Positions 9,415 through 32,927 of a stretch of DNA of 64,000 bases are shown one piece after another. Source of the stretch: Eubacteriales bacterium (lineage in GTDB: Bacteria; Bacillota; Clostridia; Oscillospirales; QAKW01); NCBI GenBank assembly GCA_045541555.1, contig JAZQJH010000036.1, positions 44,650-108,649 on the forward strand, written 5' to 3'. The notes under the pieces are model-generated. The model was not told where the DNA came from, did no database searches, and saw nothing but the letters and a program-made list of their open reading frames with translations. The translations under genes and the position numbers were made by a program. Each line of letters begins with the position of its first letter. The stretch's first letter is position 1.

Positions 9415-10854
9415 TTGAATTTGGAAATGGAACTCAGTTTATTGAATGATTTTTATGAGTTTACAATGAGCAATGGTTATTTCAATGAAGGAAAAGGTGA
9501 GCAGATCGTTTATTTTGATGTCTTTTTCCGTCGAGTGCCTGATCGTGGTGGATACGCAATTTGTTGCGGCCTGGATCAAGTGATCGACTATATATCTAAT
9601 CTATCCTATTCGGATGAAAGTATTGAATTTTTGCGTCAAAAAGGTCTCTTTTCTGAGGGCTTTTTAGAATATCTTCGTAATTTTAAATTCACTTGTGACG
9701 TATATGCCGTTCCGGAGGGAACTCCCATTTTCCCCGGTGAACCAATCTTGACGGTGCGTGGACCTGCCATTCAGGCGCAGCTTTTAGAGACGATGATTTT
9801 GCTTACGATCAATCATCAAAGCTTGATTGCAACGAAAGCTTCCCGTATTGTTCGTGCAGCTGATGGTCGTGGCGTCAGTGAATTTGGTGCACGCCGTGCG
9901 CATGGTACCGCGGCCTCAATTATGGGCGCACGTGCGGCATATATCGCCGGCTGCACAGGGACTTCTAATGCGTTGTGTGACAAGCTTTACGGCGTTCCCT
10001 GCTCCGGAACCATGGCGCATAGTTGGGTTCAAAGCTTTCCTACGGAATATGAGGCATTTGCTGCTTATGCGAGAAATTATCCCAACTCTTGCGTACTGCT
10101 TATTGATACCTTTAACGTACTGAAGTCCGGTTTGCCGAATGCAATTCGCTGCTTTAATGAGGTGTTGGCGCCCATGGGCGCACGTCCGGTTGCGGTACGT
10201 ATTGATTCCGGCGATATTACCTATCTTTCCAAGAAAATACGTTCAATTTTGGATGATGCAGGTTATCCGGATTGTAAGATTATGGTGTCCAATTCGTTGG
10301 ATGAATATATCATTCGCGACTGCATTAATCAAGGCGCAAAAATTGATCTTTTTGGCGTAGGGGAGAGGCTGATTACTTCCCGTAGCGAGTCGGTTTTTGG
10401 CGGTGTTTATAAGTTGGTTGCCGTCGAAGAAGCGGACGGAAGTGTTACGCCCAAAATCAAAATTTCTGAAAATATCGAAAAGATTACAGTGCCCTGCTTT
10501 AAGCAACTTTATCGCTTTTTCTCCAAAGAAACGGGGATGGCAATTGCGGATCTTTTGACCCTGCATGATGAGGAGATTGATGAAAATGAGCCGTACACAC
10601 TTTTTGATCCGGTTCATACTTGGAAAGAAAAAGTGGTCACGGATTATACCGCTGTCCCTATGCTGAAGCCAATCTTTGTTCAAGGAAAATTGGTGTATAA
10701 AAAGCCGAGTACCCAAGAAATCCGAAGCTATTGTTTGGAGCAGTTGAACTTGCTTTGGGATGAAGTGAAACGTTTCGAAAATCCCCATGAATACTACGTG
10801 GATTATTCGCAAAAGCTTTGGGAGATCAGACGAGATCTTTTGAAAAATCGATAA
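9415..10854 (+). CDS. pncB: Nicotinate phosphoribosyltransferase
   Basis: DFYEFTM, EFGARRAHG, GTMAHSWV, LIDTF, RIDSGD, FGVGERL; TTG start after GGAGGG. Confidence 0.93.
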   Translation: MNLEMELSLLNDFYEFTMSNGYFNEGKGEQIVYFDVFFRRVPDRGGYAICCGLDQVIDYISNLSYSDESIEFLRQKGLFSEGFLEYLRNFKFTCDVYAVPEGTPIFPGEPILTVRGPAIQAQLLETMILLTINHQSLIATKASRIVRAADGRGVSEFGARRAHGTAASIMGARAAYIAGCTGTSNALCDKLYGVPCSGTMAHSWVQSFPTEYEAFAAYARNYPNSCVLLIDTFNVLKSGLPNAIRCFNEVLAPMGARPVAVRIDSGDITYLSKKIRSILDDAGYPDCKIMVSNSLDEYIIRDCINQGAKIDLFGVGERLITSRSESVFGGVYKLVAVEEADGSVTPKIKISENIEKITVPCFKQLYRFFSKETGMAIADLLTLHDEEIDENEPYTLFDPVHTWKEKVVTDYTAVPMLKPIFVQGKLVYKKPSTQEIRSYCLEQLNLLWDEVKRFENPHEYYVDYSQKLWEIRRDLLKNR

Positions 10855-10866
10855 TTCTAACATCAA

Positions 10867-10934
10867 TTGTACAATGTTACCAAAAATGCCGCTCTAATTT
10901 TTTTATGAGTGGCATTTTTGTTCACTTTGTACAA
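10867..10934. promoter_or_regulatory. Two candidate TTGT-N9-ACAA operators (10867-10883, one mismatch; 10918-10934, perfect)
   Basis: ttgtacaatgttaccaa and ttgttcactttgtacaa; the same motif recurs at 31699 and 33064. Confidence 0.6.
10881..10920 (+). terminator. Terminator after pncB
   Basis: caaaaatgccgctc...gagtggcatttttg inverted repeat. Confidence 0.7.
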
Positions 10935-11014
10935 TAGATTATGTAAATCAAAAAGAAAACGAACTTTATTTTCAAAAAAATTAGCAATTTGTTTGTGAAA
11001 AATTAAAAAATATA

Positions 11015-11043
11015 TTGAAATTGTATATATATTGTGCTATAAT
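11015..11043 (+). promoter_or_regulatory. SigA-type promoter of the import operon
   Basis: TTGAAA-17 bp-TATAAT with extended TGn. Confidence 0.8.
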
Positions 11044-11172
11044 CATCCCGATAGTATGGATAAAAGCGATCAAATCTCTTTTGTGTACTTTGTTCAGTTA
11101 CGGCTGTTCAAAAAGTCAAAAGTGGTGGAAGCGCGACTTGAGATACTGATCAATTCAACTTGGAGGTAGTTT

Positions 11173-14100
11173 ATGAAAGACAAAAATGCAAGTTCTGTTC
11201 TTCGGTCTTTCCTGGCGGCTATAATGGTTCTCGTTATGGCTCTGTCCATGTCCACCTTCGTCTTTGCGGACGAAGGTGCGGATTCGGCGCCCGGAGAAAC
11301 GGCTGGAACAGAATCCGGTGATGCAGGAGAGAGTAGCTCTGCTCCTTCTACGAGTGGTCCTGCCGAAACCGTAACGCCTGAAGGTGGCGTTGGGGAGTCC
11401 GAAGTTTCTGTCGTCGGTTTCTATCGTGACGGCAGATATGTGGACTACTATAATGAGCACATTGCAGATGACGTTGTAATGCCCGAGATCGTGGTGGATG
11501 CAACTCAGATTACTGCTGCAACTGCTCCTTATGAAGTAAAAGATTCCTACGAGAATCGCGATTCGGTTGTTGTGACAACCGGTAGCGGCGAATTGACCTA
11601 TACGATCAATGTGACCAAAACCGGTATGTATGCAATCGGTTTGGAATACTTCCCCTTGCTGGGTGACGGCAACGGAAAGGATTATGAGCTTGCTGTTAAG
11701 CTGGACGGTACTCTTCCTCATGATGATGCTGCACGGTTCACTTTGAAACGTAATTGGATTGATGAGGATGATGAACATAACTTCGACGACATCGGCAATG
11801 AGCTTTATTCCAAGCAAGTTGAATCCGCAAAGTGGTTAAGTAAGGATATTCGTGATCCGGATGGCGTGTTTGATGATGCAGTGAAGTTTTATCTAACTGC
11901 CGGCGAGCACACCGTCACTTTCTCTTTCAACACCGGTGTTCTGGCTTTGGATAAGATTCGTTTCTATAACGAAGGCGAGCCGATGTCCTATGACGATTAT
12001 ATTGCTTTGAATGATTCCAATGGTGCTTCTGATGCAACTGAATCTTTCGAACTGGAAGCAGAGTCTTTCTTGGACAAGAGTGAGTCCTTGATTCAGCCGG
12101 CCTATGACCGCAGTGATCCGAAGGTTACTCCTTATAGCATCAGCAAGACCCGTCTGAACGTTATCGGCGGTGAAAACTGGAATACGACCGGTCAGACCGT
12201 CAATTGGATTATTGATGCTCCCGTCGATGGTTACTACACTATCGGCGTCCGCTACCGTCAGTCTTACGTCGAGGATTCTACTTCCTACAGACGTCTTTAC
12301 ATCGACGGTGGGGTTCCTTTTGAAGAAGCCAATACCATTGGTTTTCCCTTTGAAACCGGCTATCAGTATAAGGTTCTTGGCGGCAAGGATGAAGATGGGA
12401 AGAACTTCAATTATAAGTTCTATCTGACTGCCGGTAGACATGAGCTTTCCATGGAAGTCGTTATTGGTGATATGGCAGGGGTCAGCCGCGAGGCAGAAGA
12501 CCTGGTTTATCAGTTGAACTACATCTATCGTAAGATCATCATCATTACCGGTACTTCTCCCGATACTTATCGCGACTATGAATTGGATAAGAAGATTTCC
12601 GATCTGGAAGAAATGTTCAAATCCGTTTATAGTGATCTCCTTTCGATTAAGGAGCAGGTAATTGCCATTAACGGCAACCTGGGCTCTGCTTCCATTATTA
12701 CTATTTTGGAAAAGCAGATCAATGACTTTATTGAAAAGCCCTATGCTATTCCGGATCGTCTTTCTACCTTTAAAGATAATATAAGTACTCTCAGTTCCTG
12801 GATGCTGGCGTTGCGTAATCTCCCGGTTCAGTTTGATAAAATGATTTTCACCGGTGCAGGTGCAAAACCCACTCGTCAGACCGCAAACTTCTGGGAAGGC
12901 GTTTCCCATGAGGTACGTGCGTTTATTTCCTCCTTTGTCGATGACTACACTTCCGTCGGTGCTGAGAGCGCCAGTGGACGTACCTTGACCGCATGGGTTG
13001 GTACCGGTCGTGACCAAGCAACCGTTTTGAAAACTTTGACCACCAACTACTTCACTCCGGAAACTGATATTTCCGTGAACGTCGGTTTGGTTCCGTTGAG
13101 CATTTTGCAGAAGGCGATCGTAGCCGGCCGTGGTCCGGACATTGCACTGCATGTCAGTCGTACCGAGCCGATGAACCTGGGTTATCGTAACGCGGTTGTT
13201 GACCTGACTCAGTTTAGTGACTTTGAAGAGGTGGCAAATCGTTTTTCAAGATTCGCTCTTACGCCTTATACCTTAAGCACTTATGATGAGAATGGCAATA
13301 AGATCAATAAGATCTTTGCTCTTCCTGAGACTCAGGACTTCAAATTGATGTTCTATCGCACGGATATCTTTAGCGAGTTGGGCATCAGTGCTCCCAATAC
13401 CTGGGACGATCTGGACAATATTTTGCCTTATATTCAGGCAAACAACATGACGGTTGGTCTCGATCCCAATGCCAGTGGTGAGACCTTCTATACCTTGATT
13501 CTTCAGAGCGGTCATACTCCTTATAGAGAGGATGGTACCGGAACTAACTTTACCGAGCAGTATGCAATCGATGCGTTTGAAAGATGGACCCGCTACTATC
13601 TCCAGTACGACCTGCCCACTGACTATAGCTGGTACAGCCGTTTCAGAAACGGCGAGATGCCCTTGGTTATTCAAGGTTATTCCAGTATTACTTATCTGCA
13701 GGAGTCTGCTCCTGAATTAAATGGTCTTTGGAACGTTGCTCCCATGCCCGGTATTCTGAACGAGGAGACCGGTGTTGTTGATCGTACCGACCAATCCAGT
13801 GGTATGAGTGGCTGTATGATCATTGAGAGAACTATTGAGAAGGCGAAGAATCCGGAGCAGAAGCTTCAGGATGCTTGGACCTTCCTGAAGTGGTGGACCT
13901 CTAGAGATATCGCTGCTGAATACGGCAACCGCGTTGAGATGGCGATCGGTTCTGTTGCAAGATATTCTACTGCAAACCTGGAAGCATTTGAGAAGATCAA
14001 ATGGTCCAGCGCCGAGGCGGCCGTTATCAGAGCACAGCGTGAGTGGACGCGTGAGACTCCCGAATTGGTCGGTGGTTATTACGTAAGCCGTAACGTGATC

Positions 14101-14238
14101 AACGCTTTCCGTAACGTTGTTAACAATAAGGCGAATCCGAGAGAAAAACTCTTCTATTATAATAATGAAATCAACGATGAGATTTGGCGTAAGCGTTCTG
14201 AATATCATCTGTCTGTACCGGAGGAGGCGAGAAAATAA
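11173..14238 (+). CDS. Very large extracellular solute-binding protein (family-1 SBP C-terminus, carbohydrate-binding-like N-terminal domains)
   Basis: Sec signal peptide; beta-rich N-terminal ~430 aa; SBP features GRGPDIA, ALPETQDF.LMFYRTDIF, AWTFLKWWTS. Confidence 0.85.
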   Translation: MKDKNASSVLRSFLAAIMVLVMALSMSTFVFADEGADSAPGETAGTESGDAGESSSAPSTSGPAETVTPEGGVGESEVSVVGFYRDGRYVDYYNEHIADDVVMPEIVVDATQITAATAPYEVKDSYENRDSVVVTTGSGELTYTINVTKTGMYAIGLEYFPLLGDGNGKDYELAVKLDGTLPHDDAARFTLKRNWIDEDDEHNFDDIGNELYSKQVESAKWLSKDIRDPDGVFDDAVKFYLTAGEHTVTFSFNTGVLALDKIRFYNEGEPMSYDDYIALNDSNGASDATESFELEAESFLDKSESLIQPAYDRSDPKVTPYSISKTRLNVIGGENWNTTGQTVNWIIDAPVDGYYTIGVRYRQSYVEDSTSYRRLYIDGGVPFEEANTIGFPFETGYQYKVLGGKDEDGKNFNYKFYLTAGRHELSMEVVIGDMAGVSREAEDLVYQLNYIYRKIIIITGTSPDTYRDYELDKKISDLEEMFKSVYSDLLSIKEQVIAINGNLGSASIITILEKQINDFIEKPYAIPDRLSTFKDNISTLSSWMLALRNLPVQFDKMIFTGAGAKPTRQTANFWEGVSHEVRAFISSFVDDYTSVGAESASGRTLTAWVGTGRDQATVLKTLTTNYFTPETDISVNVGLVPLSILQKAIVAGRGPDIALHVSRTEPMNLGYRNAVVDLTQFSDFEEVANRFSRFALTPYTLSTYDENGNKINKIFALPETQDFKLMFYRTDIFSELGISAPNTWDDLDNILPYIQANNMTVGLDPNASGETFYTLILQSGHTPYREDGTGTNFTEQYAIDAFERWTRYYLQYDLPTDYSWYSRFRNGEMPLVIQGYSSITYLQESAPELNGLWNVAPMPGILNEETGVVDRTDQSSGMSGCMIIERTIEKAKNPEQKLQDAWTFLKWWTSRDIAAEYGNRVEMAIGSVARYSTANLEAFEKIKWSSAEAAVIRAQREWTRETPELVGGYYVSRNVINAFRNVVNNKANPREKLFYYNNEINDEIWRKRSEYHLSVPEEARK

Positions 14239-15200
14239 TGGCTTCTGTATCAAAGCAAAGAGAAATTGAATTATTAAAGAAGAAAAGATTATCCTTCTCC
14301 GAGAGAGCGGCATTAACTTGGCGTGAGATGAAGGATAATAAGATCAACTATTTGATGATCTTGCCCTTCGTGGTTTTCTTCACCTTGTTTACAATTATTC
14401 CTATCGGTGCTTCGATCTTTTTATCTTTTACTCGTTACGACATTTTGAATACTCCGATCTTCATCGGTTGGGATAACTACCTGAGAATGTTCTTGGAGGA
14501 TAGCGTCTTTCTGATCTCCTTGAAGAACACCTTGAAGTTTGCAATTATCACCGGCCCCGTTGGTTACCTGCTTTGCTTTATCTTTGCATGGTTTATCAAC
14601 GATCTGCCCCCGATTGCGAGAGCGTTCTTTACCGTGGTATTCTACGCTCCTACTTTGGCAAACGTTTACTTTATTTTCCAGTATCTGTTCAGTGCCGATA
14701 TGTACGGTTTGATCAACTCCATCATGATGAACCTGGGCATGATCGATGAACCGATTGCATGGTTGAAGAACACGAAGTATATGATGAATATCGTTATCAT
14801 CGTGCAGTTGTGGTGTTCTTTGGGTACCAGCTTCCTTTCCTTCGTCGCCGGTTTGCAGAACCTGGATCCCTCTCTTGCTGAGGCCGGTGCGATCGATGGC
14901 GTTCGTAATCGCTTCCAAGAACTCTTTTACATCACCTTGCCGCAGATGGGCGGTATGCTGATGTTCGGTGCGGTTATGCAGATTTCTTCTGCATTCGCAG
15001 TCGGCAGTATTTCTTCTTCGCTGCTGGGTAACCCGTCAGTCGACTACGCAGGTCATACATTGGTCTTGCATATTTCCGACTTCGGTCACACCCGGTTTGA
15101 GTTGGGTTATGCTTCCGCAATCGCAGTGGTGCTGTTTGCAATGATGATCTTGAGTAAGGTCTTGATCAACAAACTGCTTGCGCGGTTCTCACATGATTAA
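14238..15200 (+). CDS. Carbohydrate ABC transporter permease
   Basis: Multiple TM helices; EAA loop EAGAIDGV. Confidence 0.92.
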   Translation: MASVSKQREIELLKKKRLSFSERAALTWREMKDNKINYLMILPFVVFFTLFTIIPIGASIFLSFTRYDILNTPIFIGWDNYLRMFLEDSVFLISLKNTLKFAIITGPVGYLLCFIFAWFINDLPPIARAFFTVVFYAPTLANVYFIFQYLFSADMYGLINSIMMNLGMIDEPIAWLKNTKYMMNIVIIVQLWCSLGTSFLSFVAGLQNLDPSLAEAGAIDGVRNRFQELFYITLPQMGGMLMFGAVMQISSAFAVGSISSSLLGNPSVDYAGHTLVLHISDFGHTRFELGYASAIAVVLFAMMILSKVLINKLLARFSHD

Positions 15201-15220
15201 GAAAGGAGAGTGAACGAAAT

Positions 15221-16078
15221 ATGTCTACAAAATTAAGAAGAACTAAGGCTTCTGTTGTTGGCGATGTATCTACATACCTTTTGCTCGCTCTCTACGCTGC
15301 CTTCATGTCCCTGCCTTTGGTTTACGCCATTGTGCAGTCTATAAAACCTTACAACGAATTGTTCATCTTCCCGCCGCGGTTCTTTACTAAAAACCCGACT
15401 TTGATGAGCTTTAGAAAACTGTTTGATTTAACGTCTACCTCTTGGGTGCCGTTCTCCAGATATGTTTTCAATACCCTTACCAATACCATTGTAGGTACGG
15501 TTATTCATATTATTTCTGCAGCTATGTGTGCTTATCCTTTGGCAAAGAATAAGTTCCCCGGTAAAAATATTATCTTCAACCTGGTTGTTTGGTCGTTGCT
15601 GTTTACCGGTGGTGTTACCGAAATTCCTGTTTACTTGGTAATGTCCTATTTGGGTATTATCGACACCTATTTTGCTTACTGGTTGCCTGAAATTGCGGCT
15701 ACCATGGGCGTATTCCTTTTGAAACAGAATGTTGCAGAGATTCCGAATGCAATGATCGAGGCTGCTCGTATTGACGGCGCAGGGGAGTGGAAGATTCTTT
15801 GGTCCATCGTCATGCCGTCCATTAAACCGGCTTGGCTTACCCTGGCAATCTTCTCTTTCCAGAGAAACTGGAATGCAACCGCAGGATCCTACATTTATAC
15901 AGAGACCCTCAAGACGTTGCCTACCGCCTTGAGCCAGATCACTGCCGCCGGTAGTGTGGCACGTGCCGGCGAGGCGTATGCTGCTTCTGTATTGATGATG
16001 ATTCCGCCGATCATCTTCTTTATCTTTGCTCAGAGTAGTACGGTGAAGACGATGGCGCACGCCGGTATCAAGGGTTAA
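15221..16078 (+). CDS. Carbohydrate ABC transporter permease
   Basis: EAARIDGAGE EAA motif, TM helices. Confidence 0.92.
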   Translation: MSTKLRRTKASVVGDVSTYLLLALYAAFMSLPLVYAIVQSIKPYNELFIFPPRFFTKNPTLMSFRKLFDLTSTSWVPFSRYVFNTLTNTIVGTVIHIISAAMCAYPLAKNKFPGKNIIFNLVVWSLLFTGGVTEIPVYLVMSYLGIIDTYFAYWLPEIAATMGVFLLKQNVAEIPNAMIEAARIDGAGEWKILWSIVMPSIKPAWLTLAIFSFQRNWNATAGSYIYTETLKTLPTALSQITAAGSVARAGEAYAASVLMMIPPIIFFIFAQSSTVKTMAHAGIKG

Positions 16079-16091
16079 GGGGGTGCACGAC

Positions 16092-17651
16092 ATGAAAAAA
16101 AGATTGACGAAAGTCGGTGCTATTGCTTTAGTAATGCTGGCGTTGGTTTCTATGCTGGCAATGCCCTCTTCGGCCTACATTGCATATAATACCTACAATT
16201 ATAATTATTACGGAGAAGCAATTGAAACTCCTTCCGGTTATGCTCCGGAAACCATTTATTATGGAGAAGACTTAGGGATCGGTACATTATCCAATGCGAT
16301 CGACCTCTATGTCAGCCCTCAGAATGAAATTTACATTCTGGATTATTATGGAAGTGACAACCTTCCCCGGTTGCACATCTTTGATTTTAATTTTAAGCAT
16401 ATTAAAACTCTTTCGACTCTTACTGCAAACGGTAATCCCTATATCATGAAATTGCCGGAGAGTGTTGTCGTAGATAAATTTGGTTACATCTATATTTGCG
16501 ACACCGGTAACCGTCAGATCTTGAAATTGGATAAGGATAAGAGCGGTAAGATCGTTCAGACTGTTGGCGCACCGAATTCCGATCTTTTTGAGGGTGAGTT
16601 TAAACCGTCTAAGATCGCGATAGCAAAGAATATGTCTTTGTATGTTATTTGTACCGGTGCCTTGGATGGTATCATGGAGTTTGACGAAAGAGGAACTTTT
16701 CTCCGCTATTTCGGTGCTCCTGATGTTCAGATGTCTGTTACGGATATGATTGCGTTGACTTGGAGACGGATGTATCGTTCGATCCTTGGTAGTGATGCAG
16801 ATAACTCTTTTGTCACCTTCGTTCCTACTGAGTTTTCTAACTTGGTTGTAGACGATTTTGGATTTGTTTATTCCGTTATTGCCGCGACCGAGGATTCCAA
16901 TACCGAGCAGTTGCTGAAAATGAACTTCTTGGGTAACAACATTCTTGACCCGATGGCCAAGAGTACTCAGAAGGTAAATGATACCCTTTCAAAAACGTAC
17001 GGAGACCTGCAGCGTCGTGGTACTAAAACCGAAGGTAATATCTTTACGGATGTTGCAGTAGATAAGGACGGGTTCATTACCATGCTGGACTCCAACCTTT
17101 GCAAGGTGTTTGAGTACGATCCGGAAGGCAACCTGACCTTTGTTTACTCCGGTAAAGGTAGTCAGAAGGGTATGCTAAACAGACCGGCTGCAATTGCAAA
17201 GCTCGGCAAAAAGACTTTGATTTTAGATTCTCATTTTGGCTCGATTACCATTTTCGATTTAACTCAGTATGGCGACACTCTTCATGACGGCATTATGCTT
17301 TATGATCAGGGTCTTTACACCGATGCTGAAACCTATTGGAATGTAATTTTGAAGCAAAATGCAAACTGTGAATTAGCACATATCGGCCTTGGTAAGGTTT
17401 ATTATCAGTTTGGCCGCTATGAAGATGCAATTCATCACTTTAAGATTGCCAATGACCGGATGAACTATCAGGATACTTATGCGCTTTACAGAGAAGCTGT
17501 AATCGCTGATTATTTTGATTTGATCATGACTCTGTTGGTTGTATTGGTTGTCGTTGCAATCGTATGGAAGGTCTTTGGTAAAAAGATCATTGAAATGATC
17601 AAAAACAGAAAACAAGGAGGTGGAGAAGATGAGTCAGAAATTGTGGAGTAA
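16092..17651 (+). CDS. Secreted NHL-repeat (beta-propeller)/TPR protein with C-terminal membrane anchor
   Basis: Signal peptide; repeats such as PESVVVD..GYIYICDTGNRQI and PSKIAI; TPR-like AHIGLGKVYYQFGRYEDA; C-terminal TM helix; ATG 16092 follows the RBS. Confidence 0.8.
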   Translation: MKKRLTKVGAIALVMLALVSMLAMPSSAYIAYNTYNYNYYGEAIETPSGYAPETIYYGEDLGIGTLSNAIDLYVSPQNEIYILDYYGSDNLPRLHIFDFNFKHIKTLSTLTANGNPYIMKLPESVVVDKFGYIYICDTGNRQILKLDKDKSGKIVQTVGAPNSDLFEGEFKPSKIAIAKNMSLYVICTGALDGIMEFDERGTFLRYFGAPDVQMSVTDMIALTWRRMYRSILGSDADNSFVTFVPTEFSNLVVDDFGFVYSVIAATEDSNTEQLLKMNFLGNNILDPMAKSTQKVNDTLSKTYGDLQRRGTKTEGNIFTDVAVDKDGFITMLDSNLCKVFEYDPEGNLTFVYSGKGSQKGMLNRPAAIAKLGKKTLILDSHFGSITIFDLTQYGDTLHDGIMLYDQGLYTDAETYWNVILKQNANCELAHIGLGKVYYQFGRYEDAIHHFKIANDRMNYQDTYALYREAVIADYFDLIMTLLVVLVVVAIVWKVFGKKIIEMIKNRKQGGGEDESEIVE

Positions 17652-18309
17652 TCTCTATGTGTTTTTTCAGATGATCAAAGAACGCTTTTTTGTCGGGAAA
17701 AAGAATCCGTTTTTAATGATTATCCATCCCGTCGAGACGATGGAAGATCTGAAGTATAAGAAAAACGGTTCGGTTGTTTATGCAACTCTGCTTCTCCTGG
17801 CCTTTACTGTTTCTGCTATTATTCAGGATGTTGGTACCGGGTTTATTTATACCACTTTGCGGATCAAGGATTTTAATATCCTGACTGTACTGTGCACCTC
17901 TGGTTTGATGGTGTTGCTGTTTGTTGTTGCAAACTGGGCGCTTTGTACGTTGCTTAGCGGTGAGGGTAGACTGATTGATATTTATATCATGACCTGCTAT
18001 AACCTGACCCCGTTGATTGCCTACAATTTGGTTAGCACTTTCCTTTCCAGATTCTTGGTAAGCAGCGAATTCTCCTTTGTTACTATTGCAGGCGCTTGTT
18101 GCACGATGTGGTTTGTTGTCCTCATGTTCTACGGTGCCATGACCATCCATAACTACAAGTTCTGGGCAACTTTGCTGAACCTGATTGCATCCTTGGTTGC
18201 CATGGCGATCATTTTCTTCTTGATCTTTTTGTTTGTTGTTTTGGTTCAGCAGTTGTATGTATTTGTTTTGACAATCTATACGGAATGCCGTATGAGAATT
18301 CTGTCTTAA
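17629..18309 (+). CDS. Yip1-like multi-pass membrane protein
   Basis: HPVETMEDLK N-terminal motif plus about 5 TM helices; position between NHL and DUF5696-like genes. Confidence 0.7.
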   Translation: MSQKLWSNLYVFFQMIKERFFVGKKNPFLMIIHPVETMEDLKYKKNGSVVYATLLLLAFTVSAIIQDVGTGFIYTTLRIKDFNILTVLCTSGLMVLLFVVANWALCTLLSGEGRLIDIYIMTCYNLTPLIAYNLVSTFLSRFLVSSEFSFVTIAGACCTMWFVVLMFYGAMTIHNYKFWATLLNLIASLVAMAIIFFLIFLFVVLVQQLYVFVLTIYTECRMRILS

Positions 18310-18328
18310 GAAAGGGGAGAAGTGAATA

Positions 18329-20557
18329 ATGAAAAAATTAATTTCTATTTTATTGTCCATCGTGTTGCTTCTTTCCTGCATTTCGACTGTGACCCTTGTG
18401 GCGAGTGCTGCTCCGGCAACCCTTGATGTTCCCGGCAACTACAGACTCGTGAATGAAAATGCTAATCTTGCTCTTTATATTGATAGCACTGCCGGTAATT
18501 TTGGCGTTATGAACGTCAAGACCGGTACGGTTTGGTATTCCAATCCGATTGATTGGGAAAGCGATACCTTTGCTCAGGGCGAGAGCCACGAAGAGCTTAC
18601 TACGAAGGTTGCAGTTGAGTACCTTACCGAGTCCTATTCGACCGGAACGGTTACTTCGCTGAAGGCTTCTACGATTACCGAGAAGCAGGGTAAAGATTGG
18701 ATTATGACCTTCTATTTTAAAGGAAATAATACCAACTTTACTATTCCGGTTAAGCTCGCTTTAAAAGAAGATTATCTTCATATGGAATTAATGATCGACC
18801 GCATCAAAGAGCTTGGGAATACTCGCGTTCTTTCTGTGAAACTGTTTCAGTTCTTTGGTGCAGCCGGTGTGAATGATACCGGTTATGGCCTGATCCCCGA
18901 TGGTTCCGGCTCTTTAATGGAGTTTAATCGCGGTGTACTGAATTCCTATGAGTTCGGTATTGATGGCGAGGGTCAGTTCTTTGCTCCGAACCCCACTGAA
19001 GCAGCGACCGATAAATATTTCACCAACTGGAACGAACCGCTTCGTCTGCCGGTGTTTGGTATGGTGAAGAATTCTGATGCATACCTCAGCATTGTAGAAA
19101 GCGGGGCTGCTGTGGCAGATCTTCACGCTTATATCAGTGGTTTTAAGAATAGTTACAATACTATGTTTACAACGATCCACGTTCGTGATACCCAAAAGCG
19201 TCGTAGCTCCACCGGTAAAGCCGGTAGTGGTTCTTACTATTCCGATTCTTTGCCCGAAAACTATATCGCAAGATATTACTTTATGAATGGCGAAGATGCG
19301 AATTACATCGGTATGGCAGAGAAGTACAGAGAGTACTTGATTAATGAGCAGGGGATGAAGAAGGTTGACGACTCTGTGTCTAATACGCTTGCAATCTCTC
19401 TTTATGGTGCAGTTAAGAAAGCTAAGCATTTTCTCGGTATTCCTTATACCGGTCAGGAAGCACTGACGACTTATAAAGAAGCTGAAGAGTTGATCGACCG
19501 TCTGAGCAATGATAAAGTTGATAAAGTTTTTGTCAATTATTTGGGTTGGGCTTCCGGTGGTTTAGAAACAACCATGGATCCGGAGATTTCCCCGAATTCC
19601 AAGCTGGGCGGAAAGAAAGCGCTCCAGAAATTGATCGATAAGGCAAATAGCGCAAACTATATGTTGAGTTTCGATATGGATCTGCAGGCTTTCTATGGCG
19701 GAAATTCTTCTGTCAAAAAGTTTAAGAATACTGCCTATGGTCTGGATTCTTTTCCTGTTGCGATCTACAGAGACAGAATTTATGCAGCTGGCGCAAAATC
19801 TACGTCCGACATTGTTTCTCAGTTGATCCATCCCGCCCATATGCCAGGCTATGCTAATGAATTTCTTAGCAATGCTTCTGCGAAGAATATTCATAATTAT
19901 TCCTTTAACTCAGTTGGCGATACCCTTTACTGTGCATACAATCTTCAGGATGTGATCACCCGTGACGGTTCTGAGGATGCGATGATTGAACTCTTTAGAG
20001 CAGCTGCTGAAAAGGCGGATGAAAACGGCGGTATTATTAATACCTTGGGTGGTAATGGTTATGCCATGTCTTATGTTGACAACGTCTTAGAAGCTCCTGT
20101 TTATGGTAGCCATAATAACATTGCGCTTCAGGAAGTGCCGTTCTATCAAATTGTTTTCCGCGGTTATGTGAACCTTGCAAGTACCCCTGTCAATCTGGAC
20201 TCTGAGCAGGATGATTTGATTTTGAAGTTGGCTGAGACCGGCATGAGCCTCTATTATCTCTTGATGGATGCAGAGTCTACTGCTTTCCAGGATACCAACT
20301 TTACTGCTTCTTATGCTTGCGAGTTGGACGATCATTATGATGATATGTTGACTCAGTACAATCGCATGAAGCCGCTTTACAATGCAGTTGGGAACAGTGA
20401 GATTACGAATTATCAGATTGTTTCCGATACTGTGAAGATCACAACCTTCAAAAATGGCGCAAAAGTGTATGTGAATTATGGCACAGCTGAAACGACCGTA
20501 GAGGGTGTTAAGATCGGTGCAAAAGACTTTACTGTGGTAGGAGGTGCAAATGCATGA
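18329..20557 (+). CDS. Secreted DUF5696-like protein
   Basis: Signal peptide; GYGLIPDGSGSLM, LPVFGM, GW..GG, VPFYQIVF.G, KGAKVYVNY motifs recalled for this family. Confidence 0.7.
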   Translation: MKKLISILLSIVLLLSCISTVTLVASAAPATLDVPGNYRLVNENANLALYIDSTAGNFGVMNVKTGTVWYSNPIDWESDTFAQGESHEELTTKVAVEYLTESYSTGTVTSLKASTITEKQGKDWIMTFYFKGNNTNFTIPVKLALKEDYLHMELMIDRIKELGNTRVLSVKLFQFFGAAGVNDTGYGLIPDGSGSLMEFNRGVLNSYEFGIDGEGQFFAPNPTEAATDKYFTNWNEPLRLPVFGMVKNSDAYLSIVESGAAVADLHAYISGFKNSYNTMFTTIHVRDTQKRRSSTGKAGSGSYYSDSLPENYIARYYFMNGEDANYIGMAEKYREYLINEQGMKKVDDSVSNTLAISLYGAVKKAKHFLGIPYTGQEALTTYKEAEELIDRLSNDKVDKVFVNYLGWASGGLETTMDPEISPNSKLGGKKALQKLIDKANSANYMLSFDMDLQAFYGGNSSVKKFKNTAYGLDSFPVAIYRDRIYAAGAKSTSDIVSQLIHPAHMPGYANEFLSNASAKNIHNYSFNSVGDTLYCAYNLQDVITRDGSEDAMIELFRAAAEKADENGGIINTLGGNGYAMSYVDNVLEAPVYGSHNNIALQEVPFYQIVFRGYVNLASTPVNLDSEQDDLILKLAETGMSLYYLLMDAESTAFQDTNFTASYACELDDHYDDMLTQYNRMKPLYNAVGNSEITNYQIVSDTVKITTFKNGAKVYVNYGTAETTVEGVKIGAKDFTVVGGANA

Positions 20558-21807
20558 GCAATCGAAATGAAGAATTGAAAGTTGACGCAATGGAAGCTCA
20601 GGCTGATGCAACCGAAGTTACCGAAGTGATTGAAATCGAGGAAGTTGCTGAACCTGAAAAGGTAGAGTATGACAAGCAGAAGATTGCTGCTGAGATCATG
20701 GCTCGGGATCCTGAGCATGCACGTGAGATCGTGAAGGCGCGTTTGGTACAGATGACTCCCGAGCAGATTGATGCGATGCGCGTTGCAAAGGCTGAAAAAG
20801 CTGCGGCTGCAGAAGCAGAGGCAGAAACTGCTCCCGTTGTAGAGACTCCTGTTGCGGCTGCTCCCGTAAAAGTGGCTAAGGTTGAAAAGGCAACGAAAAA
20901 GAAAAAGGAGAAAAAGAATAAGCGCGGTATTTCTTATGAATCCAAGCAAGCGTTTACCGGATTTATGTTTGTTTTGCCGTGGTTCCTTGGATTCCTTTTG
21001 TTCTTTGCTGCACCTTGCTTCCAGTCCTTGCAGTTTGCCTTCTCTAAGGTATCTGTTTTTGAGAACTACAAATGTACCTGGTATGGTCTTGGGAACTTTA
21101 AAGATCTCTTGACCAGTGGTGCCGCTTACTTGCAGGCCTTGCTGTCTACCTTGACTGATCTGGCGGTTAATGTGCCGGTCATTTTGATCTTCAGTTTGTT
21201 TGTGGCTGTATTGCTGAATCGTAAGTTTGTGGGTCGTGGCTTGGTTCGTGGCATCTTCTTCCTCCCGGTAATCGTTACTACCGGTGTGGTTATGTCCACC
21301 TTTAACGCCACCAGCGATGCGAATGCAGTTATGGAAGGTAACGTTGGTAACGGCGTTTTGTTCGAAGTTGCCAATGCTGCTGATTTCCTTGGCGAATTGG
21401 GCTTGAATGAAACCTTGACCAATTATATGTCGATGGTTGCGGACCGGATCTTTAACGTGGTTTGGGATTCCGGTATCCAGATTCTCTTGTTCCTTGCCGC
21501 TTTGCAGGGTATTTCTCCTTCGCTTTATGAGGCAAGTAACGTAGAAGGTGCTACCGCTTGGGAAACCTTCTGGTTGATTACGTTCCCCAACGTGGCTCCA
21601 ATCATTCTCGTTAATATCGTTTACACCATCGTTGATACCTTTGGTGATACTGAAAATGCAGTTTTGATTGAAATTGATAAGTACATCAACAGTACCTTTA
21701 ACTTTGGCGCAGCGGCGGCAGCATCCTGGATATTCTTCCTGGTTGTATTAATTATAATCGGTGTTATTTTCGGCATCTTCCAGTTGCTCGGAAAAACCAA
21801 CGATTAA
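20554..21807 (+). CDS. Carbohydrate ABC permease with ~120-aa charged N-terminal extension
   Basis: SLYEASNVEGATAWE EAA motif; TM helices begin only after ~residue 135. Confidence 0.88.
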   Translation: MSNRNEELKVDAMEAQADATEVTEVIEIEEVAEPEKVEYDKQKIAAEIMARDPEHAREIVKARLVQMTPEQIDAMRVAKAEKAAAAEAEAETAPVVETPVAAAPVKVAKVEKATKKKKEKKNKRGISYESKQAFTGFMFVLPWFLGFLLFFAAPCFQSLQFAFSKVSVFENYKCTWYGLGNFKDLLTSGAAYLQALLSTLTDLAVNVPVILIFSLFVAVLLNRKFVGRGLVRGIFFLPVIVTTGVVMSTFNATSDANAVMEGNVGNGVLFEVANAADFLGELGLNETLTNYMSMVADRIFNVVWDSGIQILLFLAALQGISPSLYEASNVEGATAWETFWLITFPNVAPIILVNIVYTIVDTFGDTENAVLIEIDKYINSTFNFGAAAAASWIFFLVVLIIIGVIFGIFQLLGKTND

Positions 21808-21824
21808 GAAAGGGGGGAAAGTAA

Positions 21825-22823
21825 ATGAAAATTGTTAAAGCATTCAAACACCAGTTTGGTGAAAACAGCAAGAAGGCCGACAAAAGAATGTGGGGCTATC
21901 TTGCTACTAAGTTTATTGGTAATCTTACAATTGCATTGATTCTGATTGGTCTTTCTTATATCATTCTCTACCCCTTGATCTACAGTATTTCTCAGGCTGT
22001 CCGTTCTCAGTTGGATATGTATGATACGACGATCATCTATATCCCCAAGCACTTCACTCTTGAGAACTTCAAGTTGGCTTGGCGCGTACTGGAGTTCCCC
22101 GCAGCGCTGTCTAATACGTTCCACCTTTCCATCTGGCCGACTCTTTTGCAGGTTTGCTCTTGTGCCTTGGCTGGTTATGGATTTGCACGGTTCAAATTTG
22201 TGGGTAAGAATCTTTTGTTCTTCCTGGTATTGCTGACGATCATCGTACCGCCCTCTACCATCATGGTTCCTCTGTATACGAATTTCCGTATGTTTGATCC
22301 TCTGTATATCGCAACTGCGATGCATTCCTTTGGATGGATCAAGGAGCCCTATCTGATTTTGACGGACTCCCTCTGGTGCTTCCTGCTTCCTGCTTTGCTG
22401 GCGGCAGGTTTGAAGAGCGGTTTGTTTGTGTTCGTTTACCGTCAGTTCTTTAGCGGTTTCCCCAAGGAATTGGAAGAGGCTGCTTACATCGATGGTTGCG
22501 GCGCCATGAAGACCTTCTTGCGCATCTTGGTTCCCAATGCAGCACCTGCATTCGTTACGGTGTTCTTGTTCTGTATCGTATGGTATTGGAACGATTACTA
22601 CACCATTCCGATGTTCGTACCGAATATGCAGACCCTGCCTGACGCATTGGGTAACATGTACTCCACGATGACCGGTGAAACGTTTAGAGGTGAAGATGCA
22701 ATTTCCCTCTATCCGATTCTGCGTGCCGGTATTATTCTGTATATCACTCCGCTGTTGATTACATTTATTCTATTGCAGAAGAAGTTTACGGAATCTATTG
22801 CACGAAGCGGTATCGTTGGTTAA
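21825..22823 (+). CDS. Carbohydrate ABC transporter permease
   Basis: ELEEAAYIDGCG EAA motif. Confidence 0.92.
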   Translation: MKIVKAFKHQFGENSKKADKRMWGYLATKFIGNLTIALILIGLSYIILYPLIYSISQAVRSQLDMYDTTIIYIPKHFTLENFKLAWRVLEFPAALSNTFHLSIWPTLLQVCSCALAGYGFARFKFVGKNLLFFLVLLTIIVPPSTIMVPLYTNFRMFDPLYIATAMHSFGWIKEPYLILTDSLWCFLLPALLAAGLKSGLFVFVYRQFFSGFPKELEEAAYIDGCGAMKTFLRILVPNAAPAFVTVFLFCIVWYWNDYYTIPMFVPNMQTLPDALGNMYSTMTGETFRGEDAISLYPILRAGIILYITPLLITFILLQKKFTESIARSGIVG

Positions 22824-22845
22824 TCATATTGATTATATGTACATT

Positions 22846-22882
22846 AATATCCCCTATGGTATCTACCATAGGGGATATTTTT
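22846..22882. terminator. Bidirectional terminator closing the import operon
   Basis: aatatcccctatggt-atct-accataggggatattttt. Confidence 0.9.
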
Positions 22883-22887
22883 CGTTT

Positions 22888-23052
22888 TTAGAAATTCATA
22901 TGCTCCACAAAATTACCGACTGCTTTAATGGCATTTCCGGCGGTTTTAGTCATGCACTTTTTGGGTTTACTTTTAAGCGCAAGCATGCTGGCAGTTGCTC
23001 CTAAGGCTGCGCCGGCAATCATGGAAAACATCATTGTTTTTGTTTGCTTCAT
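22888..23052 (-). CDS. Unannotated 54-aa membrane-anchored protein
   Basis: RBS AAAGGGA; MKQTKTMMFSMIAGAALGATASMLALKSKPKKCMTKTAGNAIKAVGNFVEHMNF; ends at the terminator. Confidence 0.75.
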   Translation of the reverse strand: MKQTKTMMFSMIAGAALGATASMLALKSKPKKCMTKTAGNAIKAVGNFVEHMNF

Positions 23053-23106
23053 TTTATCATCCCTTTCTCGTTAGTAATATTAGTATACCAAATGTGGTGT
23101 TTTATA

Positions 23107-23155
23107 TTTACATTTGACACGGAATATAGTATAATAAATCTGTATAATTGTCGAA
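23107..23155 (+). promoter_or_regulatory. SigA promoter with a downstream Spo0A-box-like heptamer
   Basis: TTTACA(23107)-17 bp-TATAAT(23130); TGTCGAA at 23149-23155. Confidence 0.5.
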
Positions 23156-23199
23156 ATTTTTGATCTTTGGAATTTTTTGTTTTATAATGAGGTTTTTAT

Positions 23200-25413
23200 A
23201 TGCGGATTTATCAGATGGAAAAAGAAGAAGTGGCCGCTTTGCTGAATACCGATCTTGAACGTGGAAAGGAACTTCATCCGATTCGTGAAAAAAAGAATGG
23301 ATGGAGAAATGTGACTTCTTTTTTTAGCGGTCTTTTTTCGTTGCTTAAAGGAAAGTTTTATTATGTAAACATCATATTGATGGTCAGCTATTTTATAGCA
23401 GGTGTTTTTTCGTGGCTGAACCACTCTTGGGGGTTGCTTTATCTGACGATAGCGGCCGTCGTATTGACTTTTTTGCTTTATATTTTAGAGGGGATACTAC
23501 TTCATATTTATAAAAAGAAATATCATGACCGGAGTATTTGTGATTCCCAAAAAGTACAAGCTCTCCGTTTTGGAAATACGGTTGAGCTTGAACCGGATGA
23601 ATTAGTGGTTGGTGATCTGATTTGTTTGCAGACGGGTACACTTCTTTATTGTGATGCGCGTATTATTGAGAGTAATGATCTTTTCTCTGAGGAAAAGACG
23701 GTCTTTGGAACGACAATTCCGCTTGAAAAGAATGCATCTTCCATTCAAGAAGAAAACATTCCTCCTGAAAAACAAAGAAATATGCTTTGGAAAGGAAGTT
23801 ATATTTCGAGCGGTAAAGGACTTGCGATTGTAACGGCGATTGGGGCTGAATGCTATATTGCTAAAACCGGCGGTCGTAAAAGCCGTAAGCAACGTTCTTT
23901 CTTCTATAATAGACAAAACAATATCGGGCATATTGCATCTTACGTTTATATTATTATCTGCGCATTGTGTTTGCTTATTGCAGCATTATTTACCAAGAAG
24001 TTTGTCGAGGCGTTCCTGCTGATGGGTGTGCTTTCTTCGTTGATGCTTCTTAATCCGGTTTCTTGCTTGATGGAGTGGACCTACTATCGCATTGCGGCGC
24101 GGTTTTATCAGCAAGGTATCTTAATTCGGAATATCGAAGCGTTTGATGGGATGAATAAAGAAAAGGAACTTTATTTTGACGCTGATAAACTGATTACGAA
24201 TCAGTTGCGCTATTCTCATACGATTGATTTCCAAGGAACAGAAAAAAGTACGGTTTCTTATTTTTCTCTTTGCATGGGCTCCGGTTATTTTGCGAATGAA
24301 TTGGGAAGTGTCCTTTCGAAATATGATCTTACTTATGAAAAGTTGGATCGTAGCTTTCCGGTGTTTCGACGTGAAACGGATGAGGAGGGGAATGTTTTTA
24401 GCCTCTTTTCCAAGTCGGGAAGCTCGGTGGTTGTGGCCGCCGGCTATTGGAAGAAAATGCTTCCTTTAGTTCAGGAATTGGGGGAGGAATTATTAGAGCA
24501 AATTCACGAGCTTGAACTTCATGGAAAAATGGTTTATATCATGGCCAGTGATTCCATGGATTTCATTCCCAATAAATTGGAGTTTTCTCGCTTTATGGGG
24601 AATATGGTTCTTTCATCGTTGGTGGTGTTTGACTTGCCCGTTAATCAAGAAGTTCTTGCGATGATTGGTCAGTTGCGCCATTCATCTATGAAGGTTCATT
24701 TGATTTCGGATTATTCCGAAGCACTTGGAAAAACCTTGGCAAGATCCTATGATATGGATGGTTTCTTGTCTCTGCCGCCCAATCGACCCTGCTACTCGAT
24801 TCCGCATTCGGACGGCAATTCTTTAGTGGTATATAAAGATCATTCTTCACCCATCGACCGGGATCAGGCGATGGTTGTGTTAGAAAACGGAGTTGCTGCT
24901 CAAAACTTGGTTTACAGAGTGAAATGTATGTTCTGCGGAATCAGAAGATGCCTAAATTTTCTTGCTATTTCTGGTGCTTTTTTGATCTTTACAGTAATGG
25001 CTCTTTTTTTGGCGAATGTGTCGATGGAAAAAATATTATTCCCTGTTTTGGCGTTGACTCCGGTATTGATTTGTCCTTGTTATTATTTAATTGAGAGCGT
25101 TAGAAACTGTAATCAATACAGACGGAGTTTAATATTGGGGATGTTTTGCGGTTCCGCCGGATTTGTCGCTGCGTTGATCGGATGCGATGCGGCGATTTTA
25201 GCGTTTGGTTTATCGACAGTTCTGCTTTCCGGATATTTCTTGTTTTCCGGTGCAAAGCATCGTGCTGTTACAAAAGGGAGCATCATCATTCTGGCGGTTG
25301 CTTTCGTAGTGGCGATCTTGCCGTTTGTCTTTATCGGTGTAAACTGGTTACCGGCGATTTTATTGTCCCTTTTTCCTGCACTGGGGGCTTTTGTTTTGGA
25401 TCTATTTTATTGA
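23200..25413 (+). CDS. Degenerate P-type (P2-like) ATPase homolog, catalytic motifs lost
   Basis: Actuator-domain similarity (DELVVGDLICL, DARIIES, NMLWKGSYISSGKGLAIVTAIG); TGES reads FGTT, DKTGT reads DADKL, no GDGxND. Confidence 0.8.
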   Translation: MRIYQMEKEEVAALLNTDLERGKELHPIREKKNGWRNVTSFFSGLFSLLKGKFYYVNIILMVSYFIAGVFSWLNHSWGLLYLTIAAVVLTFLLYILEGILLHIYKKKYHDRSICDSQKVQALRFGNTVELEPDELVVGDLICLQTGTLLYCDARIIESNDLFSEEKTVFGTTIPLEKNASSIQEENIPPEKQRNMLWKGSYISSGKGLAIVTAIGAECYIAKTGGRKSRKQRSFFYNRQNNIGHIASYVYIIICALCLLIAALFTKKFVEAFLLMGVLSSLMLLNPVSCLMEWTYYRIAARFYQQGILIRNIEAFDGMNKEKELYFDADKLITNQLRYSHTIDFQGTEKSTVSYFSLCMGSGYFANELGSVLSKYDLTYEKLDRSFPVFRRETDEEGNVFSLFSKSGSSVVVAAGYWKKMLPLVQELGEELLEQIHELELHGKMVYIMASDSMDFIPNKLEFSRFMGNMVLSSLVVFDLPVNQEVLAMIGQLRHSSMKVHLISDYSEALGKTLARSYDMDGFLSLPPNRPCYSIPHSDGNSLVVYKDHSSPIDRDQAMVVLENGVAAQNLVYRVKCMFCGIRRCLNFLAISGAFLIFTVMALFLANVSMEKILFPVLALTPVLICPCYYLIESVRNCNQYRRSLILGMFCGSAGFVAALIGCDAAILAFGLSTVLLSGYFLFSGAKHRAVTKGSIIILAVAFVVAILPFVFIGVNWLPAILLSLFPALGAFVLDLFY

Positions 25414-25428
25414 TCAAGGAGACTATGA

Positions 25429-26178: not shown

Positions 26179-26195
26179 TTGAGTGAGGATAAAGA

Positions 26196-30900: not shown

Positions 30901-30928
30901 GGCTGCGCCGGATACGGCGCAGCCTTTT
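30901..30928 (+). terminator. Terminator
   Basis: ggctgcgccg-gata-cggcgcagcctttt. Confidence 0.8.
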
Positions 30929-30935
30929 GAAGGAA

Positions 30936-31817: not shown

Positions 31818-32927
31818 ATGGCAAGTTTGTCATTGAAAGGTATTTACAAAAGATATCCCGGCGGTGTAGTCGCAGTTTCTGATTTCAATCTTGAGATTGA
31901 AGATAAGGAGTTCTTGGTTCTCGTCGGTCCTTCCGGTTGCGGTAAGTCTACCACCCTTAGAATGATCGCAGGCCTGGAGGAAATCACGGAAGGTGAGCTG
32001 TTTATCGGCGACAAGCTGGTGAACGACGTTGCTCCTAAGGACAGAGATATTGCAATGGTGTTCCAGAACTACGCTCTGTATCCTCATATGACTTGTTTTG
32101 ACAACATGGCATTTGGTCTGAAGCTGAGAAAGACTCCCAAGGAGGAGATCAAGAGAAGAGTAGAAGAAGCTGCTAAGATCTTGGACATCAGCCATTTGCT
32201 CGACAGAAAGCCCAAGGCTTTGTCCGGTGGTCAGCGTCAGCGTGTTGCTCTGGGTCGTGCTATCGTCCGTGAGCCGAAGGTATTCTTGCTTGACGAGCCT
32301 CTTTCCAACTTGGATGCTAAGCTCCGTGCTCAGATGAGAACCGAGCTTTCTAAGATTCATCATAATTTAAAGACCACCTTCATCTATGTAACCCATGACC
32401 AGACCGAGGCTATGACCATGGCAACTCGTATCGTTGTTATGAAAGACGGTCTGATCCAGCAGGTTGATACTCCTCAGAATCTGTATCTCTATCCCTGCAA
32501 TATGTTCGTTGCTGGATTTATCGGTTCTCCTCAGATGAACTTTGTTAAGGTTGATCTGGTCGAGAAGAACGGCGACTATTACGTTGAGTTCGCCGGTAAC
32601 TCCCTGAAACTGCCCGAATCCAAGATCAATGATGAAGTTAAGGAAAAGGCTGGTCAGAAGGTTATTCTCGGTATTCGTCCCGAGCATGTTCATGATGAGG
32701 AAGAGTACCTGGCTAAGTTGCCTGAGTATACCATTACTTGCAACGTTGAAGTTGCTGAGTTGATGGGTTCTGAGACTTATCTGTATTTGGAGATCGAGGG
32801 TAATAAGTTTACCGCTCGCGTTTCTCCTAAGTCTACTGCTGCTGCCGATGATGTTATCAAGGCTGCTCTGGATCTCTCTTATTGCCATCTCTTTGATGCT
32901 GAAACTGAGAGAACTTTGATTAACTAA
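31818..32927 (+). CDS. msmX: Multiple-sugar ABC transporter ATP-binding protein (MsmX/MalK family)
   Basis: [33 protein letters not shown]-terminal OB/TOBE region. Confidence 0.93.

Follow-up and report, generated by a model that had tools for sequence, protein, structure and literature searches.

We have identified an eight-gene operon (g1 to g8) that encodes an ATP-binding cassette (ABC) importer with accessory subunits, undescribed in the literature that we searched. It occupies positions 11173-22823 of the + strand of a 64,000-nucleotide stretch from the small genome of a gut bacterium of the Clostridia (Eubacteriales), here called the window; the gene set itself is real, and its mechanism is inferred. 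Our reading, to which we assign a probability of roughly 0.55, is that the locus is a minimal, stand-alone copy of an old and widespread Bacillota cassette in which two CUT1-type ABC importers are combined with three membrane-tethered surface proteins for the capture and import of glycans. In the mechanism that we propose, the tethered binding protein g1 would capture oligosaccharide or polysaccharide chains through two modules that resemble carbohydrate-binding modules (CBMs) of the CBM6/35 type, and would pass the ligand to its own Lin1841-like binding domain, which would dock on the first permease pair (g2/g3). The second pair (g7/g8) would be served elsewhere by variable, ordinary substrate-binding proteins (SBPs) and here probably by one of three orphan lipoproteins in trans, and a shared ATPase would drive both pairs. 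The NHL/TPR/Yip1 protein (g4 and g5) and a lipoprotein shaped like an enzyme of glycoside hydrolase (GH) family 129 (g6) would sit on the outer side of pair 2 and serve there in binding or organisation, without catalysis. A physical or functional link between this trio and pair 2 is suggested by the trio's unvarying place before g7/g8, by the Yip1 anchor in the membrane, and by the PknD-like and TPR binding modules.

Far less is known about glycan uptake by fibre-degrading Gram-positive bacteria and gut Clostridia than about the Sus paradigm of the Bacteroidota. A fixed eight-gene module found in ~9% of sampled Bacillota, with a signature family of more than 2000 clusters, is a concrete and testable gap in that knowledge, and its presence in cultivable Paenibacillus makes genetics feasible. 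The stripped-down copy described here reveals which parts persist without enzymes, a regulator or an ordinary binding protein, and it includes a GH129-shaped protein that strong selection has preserved although its likely active-site acids are gone. The literature searched contained no mention of DUF5696, PF18952 (the signature family of g6) or this gene set; a preliminary description of the locus likewise cited no mechanistic account. What we add to that description is the location of the ATPase, a gradient from constant to variable parts of the cassette, five acidic residues of the DUF5696 family of which three are lost in this genus, and orphan SBPs that could serve pair 2.

Eight + strand open reading frames (ORFs) were found at 11173-22823, with boundaries unchanged from the preliminary description. 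The operon and its control elements, all on the + strand, are as follows.

10883..10920, +: terminator hairpin of the upstream nicotinate phosphoribosyltransferase (NAPRTase) gene, the 5' boundary of the operon
11015..11043, +: sigma-A type promoter with an UP-like A-rich tract before it; TTGAAA, 17-nt spacer, TG-n-TATAAT
11050..11172, +: 5' untranslated region (UTR) of ~120 nt, with conserved boxes GATAGTATGGA and TTTGTGTAATTTGTTCA and the ribosome-binding site GGAGG
11173-14238, +: g1, giant binding protein of 1021 aa; SBP_bac_8 (Pfam)
14238-15200, +: g2, MalF/UgpA-type permease of pair 1; BPD_transp_1, EAA loop
15221-16078, +: g3, MalG/UgpE-type permease of pair 1; BPD_transp_1, EAA loop
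16083-17651, +: g4, NHL propeller plus TPR, with a C-terminal transmembrane (TM) helix
17620-18309, +: g5, Yip1-family membrane protein (Pfam)
18329-20557, +: g6, DUF5696 lipoprotein with a GH129-like fold
20554-21807, +: g7, MalF/UgpA-type permease of pair 2; BPD_transp_1, EAA loop
21825-22823, +: g8, MalG/UgpE-type permease of pair 2; BPD_transp_1, EAA loop
22846..22879, +: intrinsic terminator, a 15-bp stem followed by a T-run

From g1 to g8, the successive junctions are a 1-nt overlap, a 20-nt gap, a 4-nt gap, a 32-nt overlap, a 19-nt gap, a 4-nt overlap and a 17-nt gap. The promoter at 11015-11043 was the top promoter-like site of the region scan (11/12 matches plus the TG), and the hairpin at 22846-22879 was its sole strong terminator. 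Together with the ORFs and their Pfam domains, these two sites confirmed that one promoter and one terminator enclose the eight-gene set. The promoter, the upstream A-tract, the 5' UTR boxes and the ribosome-binding site are unchanged in nine relatives whose proteins are at 65-70% identity. A further box, ATTATGTAAAC, lies ~75 nt upstream of the -35 hexamer in the region 10940-11172. GATAGTATGGA, TTTGTGTAATTTGTTCA and ATTATGTAAAC are invariant or nearly so across the nine relatives, and these conserved non-coding boxes around the promoter could be operator sites. In an alignment of the same nine relatives, the stem of the NAPRTase terminator varies in sequence while its complementarity is kept through compensatory changes. 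No Rfam match was obtained at E <= 0.1 within 10500-23500, and no catabolite-responsive element (cre, the CcpA operator) was found near the promoter at <=1 mismatch, the window-wide count of such sites being at chance level. Within the cassette, Pfam searches of g1-g8 recognised no ATPase, glycoside hydrolase or regulator.

All eight genes have dN/dS values of 0.02-0.09, similar to that of the neighbouring housekeeping NAPRTase gene, and by this measure all of them are under strong purifying selection. A search with g6 returned 19 loci in metagenome-assembled genomes of gut and rumen Clostridia; every locus that was long enough carried the same eight genes in the same order, one of them at just 26-49% identity, and the order is kept in about 15 close relatives. 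For a more distant sample, 20-kb contexts were taken from 20 genomes that represent about 15 GTDB families and scored with hidden Markov models derived from the clade of the window. The complete order (giant SBP, g2, g3, NHL/TPR with or without Yip1, DUF5696, g7, g8) was present in 13/20 of these contexts, the giant-SBP/g2/g3 block was relocated behind g8 in three (L056, L058 and L060), and the core of g4-g8 stood alone in four, one of which was ended by the contig edge. Throughout, the giant binding protein gene directly precedes g2/g3. The core genes g4 (with or without g5), g6, g7 and g8 were contiguous and of unchanged order in 18/20, the two exceptions being L063, with two inserted ORFs, and L064, where the contig ends. 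The claim of a co-conserved unit with similar gene orders in other Bacillota was thus borne out by this survey, in the close relatives as in the core order of the distant contexts. The insertion in L063 (11608-14078) consists of a HlyD-type membrane-fusion gene and a gene for a MacB-type periplasmic core domain, placed between the DUF5696 gene and g7.

Among 401 evenly sampled Bacillota genomes, 35 (~9%) had PF18952 above its cut-off. DUF5696 was present in 17/18 genomes of the window's genus and in 6/12 other families of the order, and its highest copy number was six, in one 1.8-Mb genome. At E <= 1e-30, matches to g6 comprised 2067 representative clusters at 50% identity. Cultivable Paenibacillus species, among them the laboratory-tractable soil bacteria P. 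odorifer and P. taichungensis, are also carriers, and their sole annotation for the protein is 'DUF5696 domain-containing protein'.

Conservation is graded along the cassette. Over the roughly 15 families, mean pairwise identity was 42% for the SBP domain of g1 (minimum 32%), 47.5% for g2 and 45% for g3, followed by 39% for g8, 37% for g7, 33% for g4, 28% for g6 and 20% for neighbouring small SBPs. In other genomes, an ordinary SBP_bac_1 protein of ~450 aa usually stands before g1 or after g8, and the locus-variable neighbours include GH10, GH106-like, pectate lyase and LacI genes. Loci of the window's genus have no small SBP, enzyme or regulator in cis. This gradient suggests that the cassette has a constant half (giant SBP, g2 and g3) and a substrate-specific half, with the small SBPs and nearby enzymes varying. 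Because g1-g3 are so much better conserved than the small SBPs, the giant-SBP transporter would be expected to handle a similar ligand whatever enzymes adjoin it, and specificity for the substrate would lie with the small SBPs.

In g1, the SBP_bac_8 match is restricted to residues 645-917 (Pfam, E 1.8e-13). From the N-terminus, a signal or anchor and an acidic linker of ~45 aa lead into two beta-sandwiches that resemble CBM6/CBM35, then a four-helix bundle, and finally a sugar-binding domain of the CUT1 type. An AlphaFold2 (AF2) model of residues 62-640 (predicted local distance difference test score, pLDDT, 86) contained the two beta-sandwiches, the four-helix bundle and the first part of the binding domain. 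Foldseek matched the sandwiches to single CBM6/CBM35 chains with target-based TM-scores (TMt) of 0.60-0.67 and E about 1e-5; Pfam found no CBM match in g1. A profile of the binding domain searched against the PDB matched sugar SBPs, the best being Lin1841 (5ysb; E 2.5e-28), a sophoro-oligosaccharide binder of Listeria innocua. NCBIfam searches gave no match for g1, g5 or g6.

The EAA-x3-G motif is readable in the translations of all four permeases (g2, g3, g7 and g8), and both pairs should therefore be ATPase-coupled importers. Each permease forms its own orthologue group across the phylum; g2-type proteins, for instance, reach ~400 bits with the g2 model and ~50 with that of g7. By NCBIfam, g7 is UgpA-like. 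Residues 1-125 of g7 (20554-20930) make up a charged, Glu/Lys/Ala-rich cytoplasmic N-terminal extension that is clade-specific; it is missing from the distant orthologues (~300 aa), and close relatives keep its first ~70 residues (38-50% identity), followed by a variable linker.

Gram-positive CUT1 systems of the Firmicutes share an ATPase of the MsmX/MsmK type, and a cassette without an ATPase is accordingly ordinary. The window's own genome (1.78 Mb, 97.5% complete) has a total of 12 BPD_transp_1 domains and 5 SBP_bac_1 hits, and searching it for OB_MalK gave a single match, 9 kb downstream of the operon. The preliminary description was thus right that the cassette contains no ATPase, and the genome supplies one, the single MalK/MsmX-type ATPase, which presumably energises both permease pairs in trans. 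The description also counted only one recognisable SBP; that is so in cis, while the genome holds three orphan SBP-like lipoproteins, and most other copies of the cassette add an SBP of ~450 aa. These candidate partners are listed below; C12, C34 and C20 are contigs of the same genome, and none of the three has a BPD_transp_1 hit.

31818..32927, +: solo MalK/UgpC/MsmX-type ABC ATPase of 369 aa; NCBIfam UgpC subfamily 488 bits, MalK 440 bits
C12:18006-19352, -: orphan SBP_bac_1 lipoprotein, confirmed by Pfam; in all 18 genomes of the genus at 43-83% identity
C34:15269-17110, -: SBP-like lipoprotein of 613 aa with an acidic (DKDS/T)n linker, between two SLH-domain surface proteins
C20:10744-12288, +: SBP-like lipoprotein of 514 aa, a paralogue of the C34 protein with a long acidic repeat linker, adjoining a CotH-like protein

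The three orphan lipoproteins are candidate partners of g7/g8, since this is the sole permease pair without a binding protein in cis. In pairwise comparison, residues 200-465 of the C34 protein are similar to Pfam-confirmed small SBPs linked to the cassette at eight other loci. Pfam recognised no SBP domain in the C34 or C20 protein, and the C34 lipoprotein gave only low-complexity matches in the PDB. BLAST searches of the genome with 12 cassette-linked small SBPs found no orthologue of them. The C12 SBP occurs throughout the genus and is not found in other cassette-bearing families of the order. By eye, the C12 gene is neighboured by a spoIIR-like gene, a ferredoxin-NADP reductase-like subunit gene and a gene for an oxidoreductase like the small chain of glutamate synthase. 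The ATPase gene stands between genes for a RsuA-like pseudouridine synthase (30927-31634) and a CdaR-family regulator (33166-34257).

Set beside known systems, the cassette shares with Gram-positive CUT1 importers (TC 3.A.1.1) an SBP_bac_1/8-type domain and MalF-like and MalG-like permeases that bear EAA loops, as well as an ATPase whose gene lies apart from those of the permeases and whose C-terminal domain is of the MalK type. It differs from them in fixing two permease pairs in one operon together with three extra conserved membrane or surface proteins, in the ~600 extra residues of g1, and, in this copy, in having no cis binding protein for pair 2. In a Gram-positive polysaccharide utilization locus (gpPUL), a transporter, a regulator and glycoside hydrolases are combined in one locus. 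Copies of the cassette that stand beside GH10, GH106-like, pectate lyase and LacI genes resemble such loci, whereas the copy in the window has no regulator or Pfam-recognised GH between its flanking housekeeping genes, and the accessory trio appears in no gpPUL description that we found. A more ambitious version of our reading, which we entertain only tentatively, is that the parts form a multi-subunit machine of monoderm cells in which an NHL/TPR/Yip1 scaffold and a glycan receptor, derived from a GH129 enzyme as a pseudo-glycosidase, organise the two importers, and a constant giant-SBP channel and a substrate-specific channel cooperate on long glycans. Such a machine would be a counterpart of Sus in function only. 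The one idea in common with SusCD of the Bacteroidota is that of surface glycan-binding proteins coupled to a transporter; the two systems have no homologous parts, and the cassette has neither an outer membrane nor a TonB-dependent transporter to work with, so that the comparison is by analogy alone.

The signature protein, g6, matches DUF5696 (PF18952) with E 3.5e-149 and 498.6 bits, far above the cut-off of 25.6. It has a lipobox (LLSC, Cys17) and is a lipoprotein in the window's genus; elsewhere, it has an N-terminal TM anchor. The AF2 model (pLDDT 88, predicted TM-score 0.88) consists of an N-terminal beta-sandwich, a (beta/alpha)8 barrel and a C-terminal beta-sandwich. The top Foldseek matches were 5opq, 8rzk and 5wzn (TMt 0.70-0.74), including DagB (5opq; E 7e-35, TMt 0.70) and NagBb (5wzn; E 7.5e-30), and the next matches after these GH129 types were GH101, GH31 and GH36. 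A sequence profile of g6 searched against the PDB also retrieved DagB (E 2.4e-12) and NagBb (E 7.6e-9), the matched region being confined to the N-domain and the barrel's first half. Used alone as a profile, the catalytic half of DUF5696 found no GH129 chain in the PDB. As modelled, g6 is a GH129-fold protein. The statement that the cassette holds no glycoside hydrolase therefore stands for Pfam-recognised families and needs amending for fold. The three-domain architecture of g6 is shared with NagBb, the alpha-N-acetylgalactosaminidase of GH129 (5wzn), and with DagB, the 3,6-anhydro-D-galactosidase of Zobellia (5opq, 8rzg; PMC5698469). Unlike these enzymes, g6 probably lacks the nucleophile loop and has S528 and L573 at the corresponding positions, and DUF5696 proteins are lipid- or TM-anchored and always found inside an ABC operon.

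DagB requires D202, D486, E517 and E531, and NagBb uses D435 and E478 (PMC5698469). Of these, D435 of NagBb and D486 of DagB are the Asp nucleophiles, and the acid/base Glu is E478 in NagBb, to be compared with E517 in DagB. The catalytic residues were mapped onto g6 by hhalign and by spacing arguments on the DagB numbering (PMC5698469). When DUF5696 was aligned with four Bacillota PF11308 proteins (hhalign, probability 98.7%), the GH129 nucleophile loop 'WFIDCD' fell in a six-residue gap, and the acid/base stretch 'SEGGND' was aligned to 'TLGGNG'. A PF11308 protein of Bacillota in turn gave only short aligned stretches with DagB. The position flanking the loop (528) is Ser in g6 and acidic in 24% of 175 family members; the acid/base position (573) is Leu in g6 and acidic in 39%. 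The GH129 nucleophile and acid/base residue are thus probably both missing from g6. Across the same 175 members, five other acids are kept by the family: D191 (97%), D/E221 (91%), D536 in 'YSD[FY]' (81%), D600 in 'DExVPFY' (77%) and E636 (93%). All five are present in 96/175. In g6 and its genus, positions 191, 221, 536, 600 and 636 read D, N, A, L and E, a pattern found in just 7/175. From the alignment, position 221 appears to correspond to the DagB substrate-site residue K208 (PMC5698469), and the family may include non-canonical enzymes.

With a dN/dS of 0.04-0.06, g6 is strongly constrained despite the loss of three of the five acids, which argues for a binding or structural role; binding or scaffolding is a likelier function of this copy than hydrolysis. 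The suggestion that the DUF5696 protein is a cryptic hydrolase is weakened accordingly for a copy that has neither the canonical GH129 residues nor three of the five family acids. It would be revived if DUF5696 were an active, non-canonical glycosidase or transglycosylase that trims chains captured by g1, the products entering through pair 2 in a sequence of capture, cut and import. The full three-domain fold of GH129/GH101/GH31 type, the sequence homology to DagB and NagBb, both active enzymes, and the five acids, each kept in 77-97% of the family, all speak for such an enzyme, as does the constant place of a g6-type gene directly 5' of g7/g8. In DagB, moreover, the N-domain residues beside the equivalent of position 221 line the active site (PMC5698469). 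Against it, the family has a deletion in place of the GH129 nucleophile loop and varies at the acid/base position, the locus offers no enzyme partner, and the window's genus has N221, A536 and L600, so that its copy would be inactive if those acids are catalytic, yet it is strongly conserved. We consider an active enzyme unlikely.

Four genomes of the same genus (G402, G406, G409 and G414) carry a second protein of ~585 aa that matches DUF5696 over model positions 186-612 or so (264-610 in G414), with E about 1e-26 to 1e-29. This protein, perhaps a distant paralogue of reduced length, was not seen in the window's genome.

For g4, Pfam gave weak NHL and weak TPR matches. A profile of 25 homologues matched the Pizza propellers (E 1e-50 to 1e-68) and PknD (1rwi; E 1.6e-37) over 4-6 stretches, and consensus TPR proteins too. 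The Pizza propellers are six-bladed and derived from the extracellular sensor domain of PknD, and g4 is accordingly predicted from its sequence to be an extracellular six-bladed NHL beta-propeller with TPR. Its translation begins with an N-terminal signal and closes with a TM helix at the C-terminus, followed by a short charged tail; the true start is likely the ATG at 16092. The g5 protein matches Yip1 over residues 33-201 (Pfam, E 7.3e-13), and five hydrophobic segments can be read in it. Because g4 and g5 are fused into one protein in 11 of the 20 distant relatives, and here overlap, we regard NHL/TPR and Yip1 as a single functional unit that is split in this copy. They had been presented as separate subunits, which holds for the two genes here and not for the two halves of one protein elsewhere.

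A bacterial Yip1 membrane protein that is encoded and acts with an ABC transporter has a precedent in YknW of the Bacillus YknWXYZ system (PMC4887032). YknXYZ differs in being a MacB-type exporter concerned with a peptide toxin, whereas the Yip1 protein here anchors an NHL/TPR ectodomain beside type I importers. In the literature on Yip1 family proteins and ABC transporters, only YknW and bacteriocin loci were found. YknW, the only described bacterial Yip1 protein that we found, belongs to an ABC system as an accessory component (PMC4887032), and the nearest relative of the g4 propeller is the extracellular sensor domain of the PknD kinase. Both would suit a trio that serves as a sensor or regulator, detecting an extracellular glycan or an envelope signal and gating or localising the transporters, or else a system that recycles the cell's own envelope polymers. 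The situation of a locus without regulator or enzyme in a housekeeping neighbourhood, behind a strong promoter that does not vary, is compatible with this explanation, as is the conservation of the giant-SBP half regardless of adjoining enzymes. No output domain (kinase, helix-turn-helix or cyclase) is recognisable in any of the eight proteins, however, and elsewhere the cassette stands beside xylanase, rhamnosidase-like and pectate lyase genes, which fits nutrient acquisition; a sensory or recycling role strikes us as distinctly improbable.

That the operon is merely two independent, ordinary sugar ABC importers flanking unrelated surface proteins, with no functional coupling, is hardly credible, for although each half resembles a normal CUT1 system and the g1-g3 block is mobile relative to the core (L056, L058, L060) or absent from it, the core genes keep their contiguity and order in 18/20 distant contexts, start and stop codons overlap, one conserved promoter and one terminator serve the whole set, and each permease belongs to a cassette-specific orthologue group.

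Several points weigh against our preferred reading of two importers with three membrane-tethered surface proteins. Everything in the mechanism beyond domain identity is inferred. The mapping of GH129 catalytic residues depends on a remote profile alignment, so that their loss is probable, and the active site of g6 may have been relocated, for example to D191 and E636, both of which are kept here. The tethering of g1 is uncertain, as its N-terminal signal peptide looks cleavable, with a cleavage-type site at VFA/DE, and carries no lipobox; other g1 orthologues have clear TM anchors. The conservation of g1-g3 could come from assembly constraints and not from a constant ligand. Finally, beyond the genus the orphan SBPs are not found together with the cassette, and their link to g7/g8 is circumstantial.

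The operon is neighboured upstream by genes for an H+-translocating pyrophosphatase and NAPRTase, and downstream by a P-type-ATPase-like gene. The downstream region (23200-28229) holds this last gene, a SpoU methylase gene and an ORF of 677 aa without a Pfam match, and these genes stay adjacent to the cassette in most relatives.

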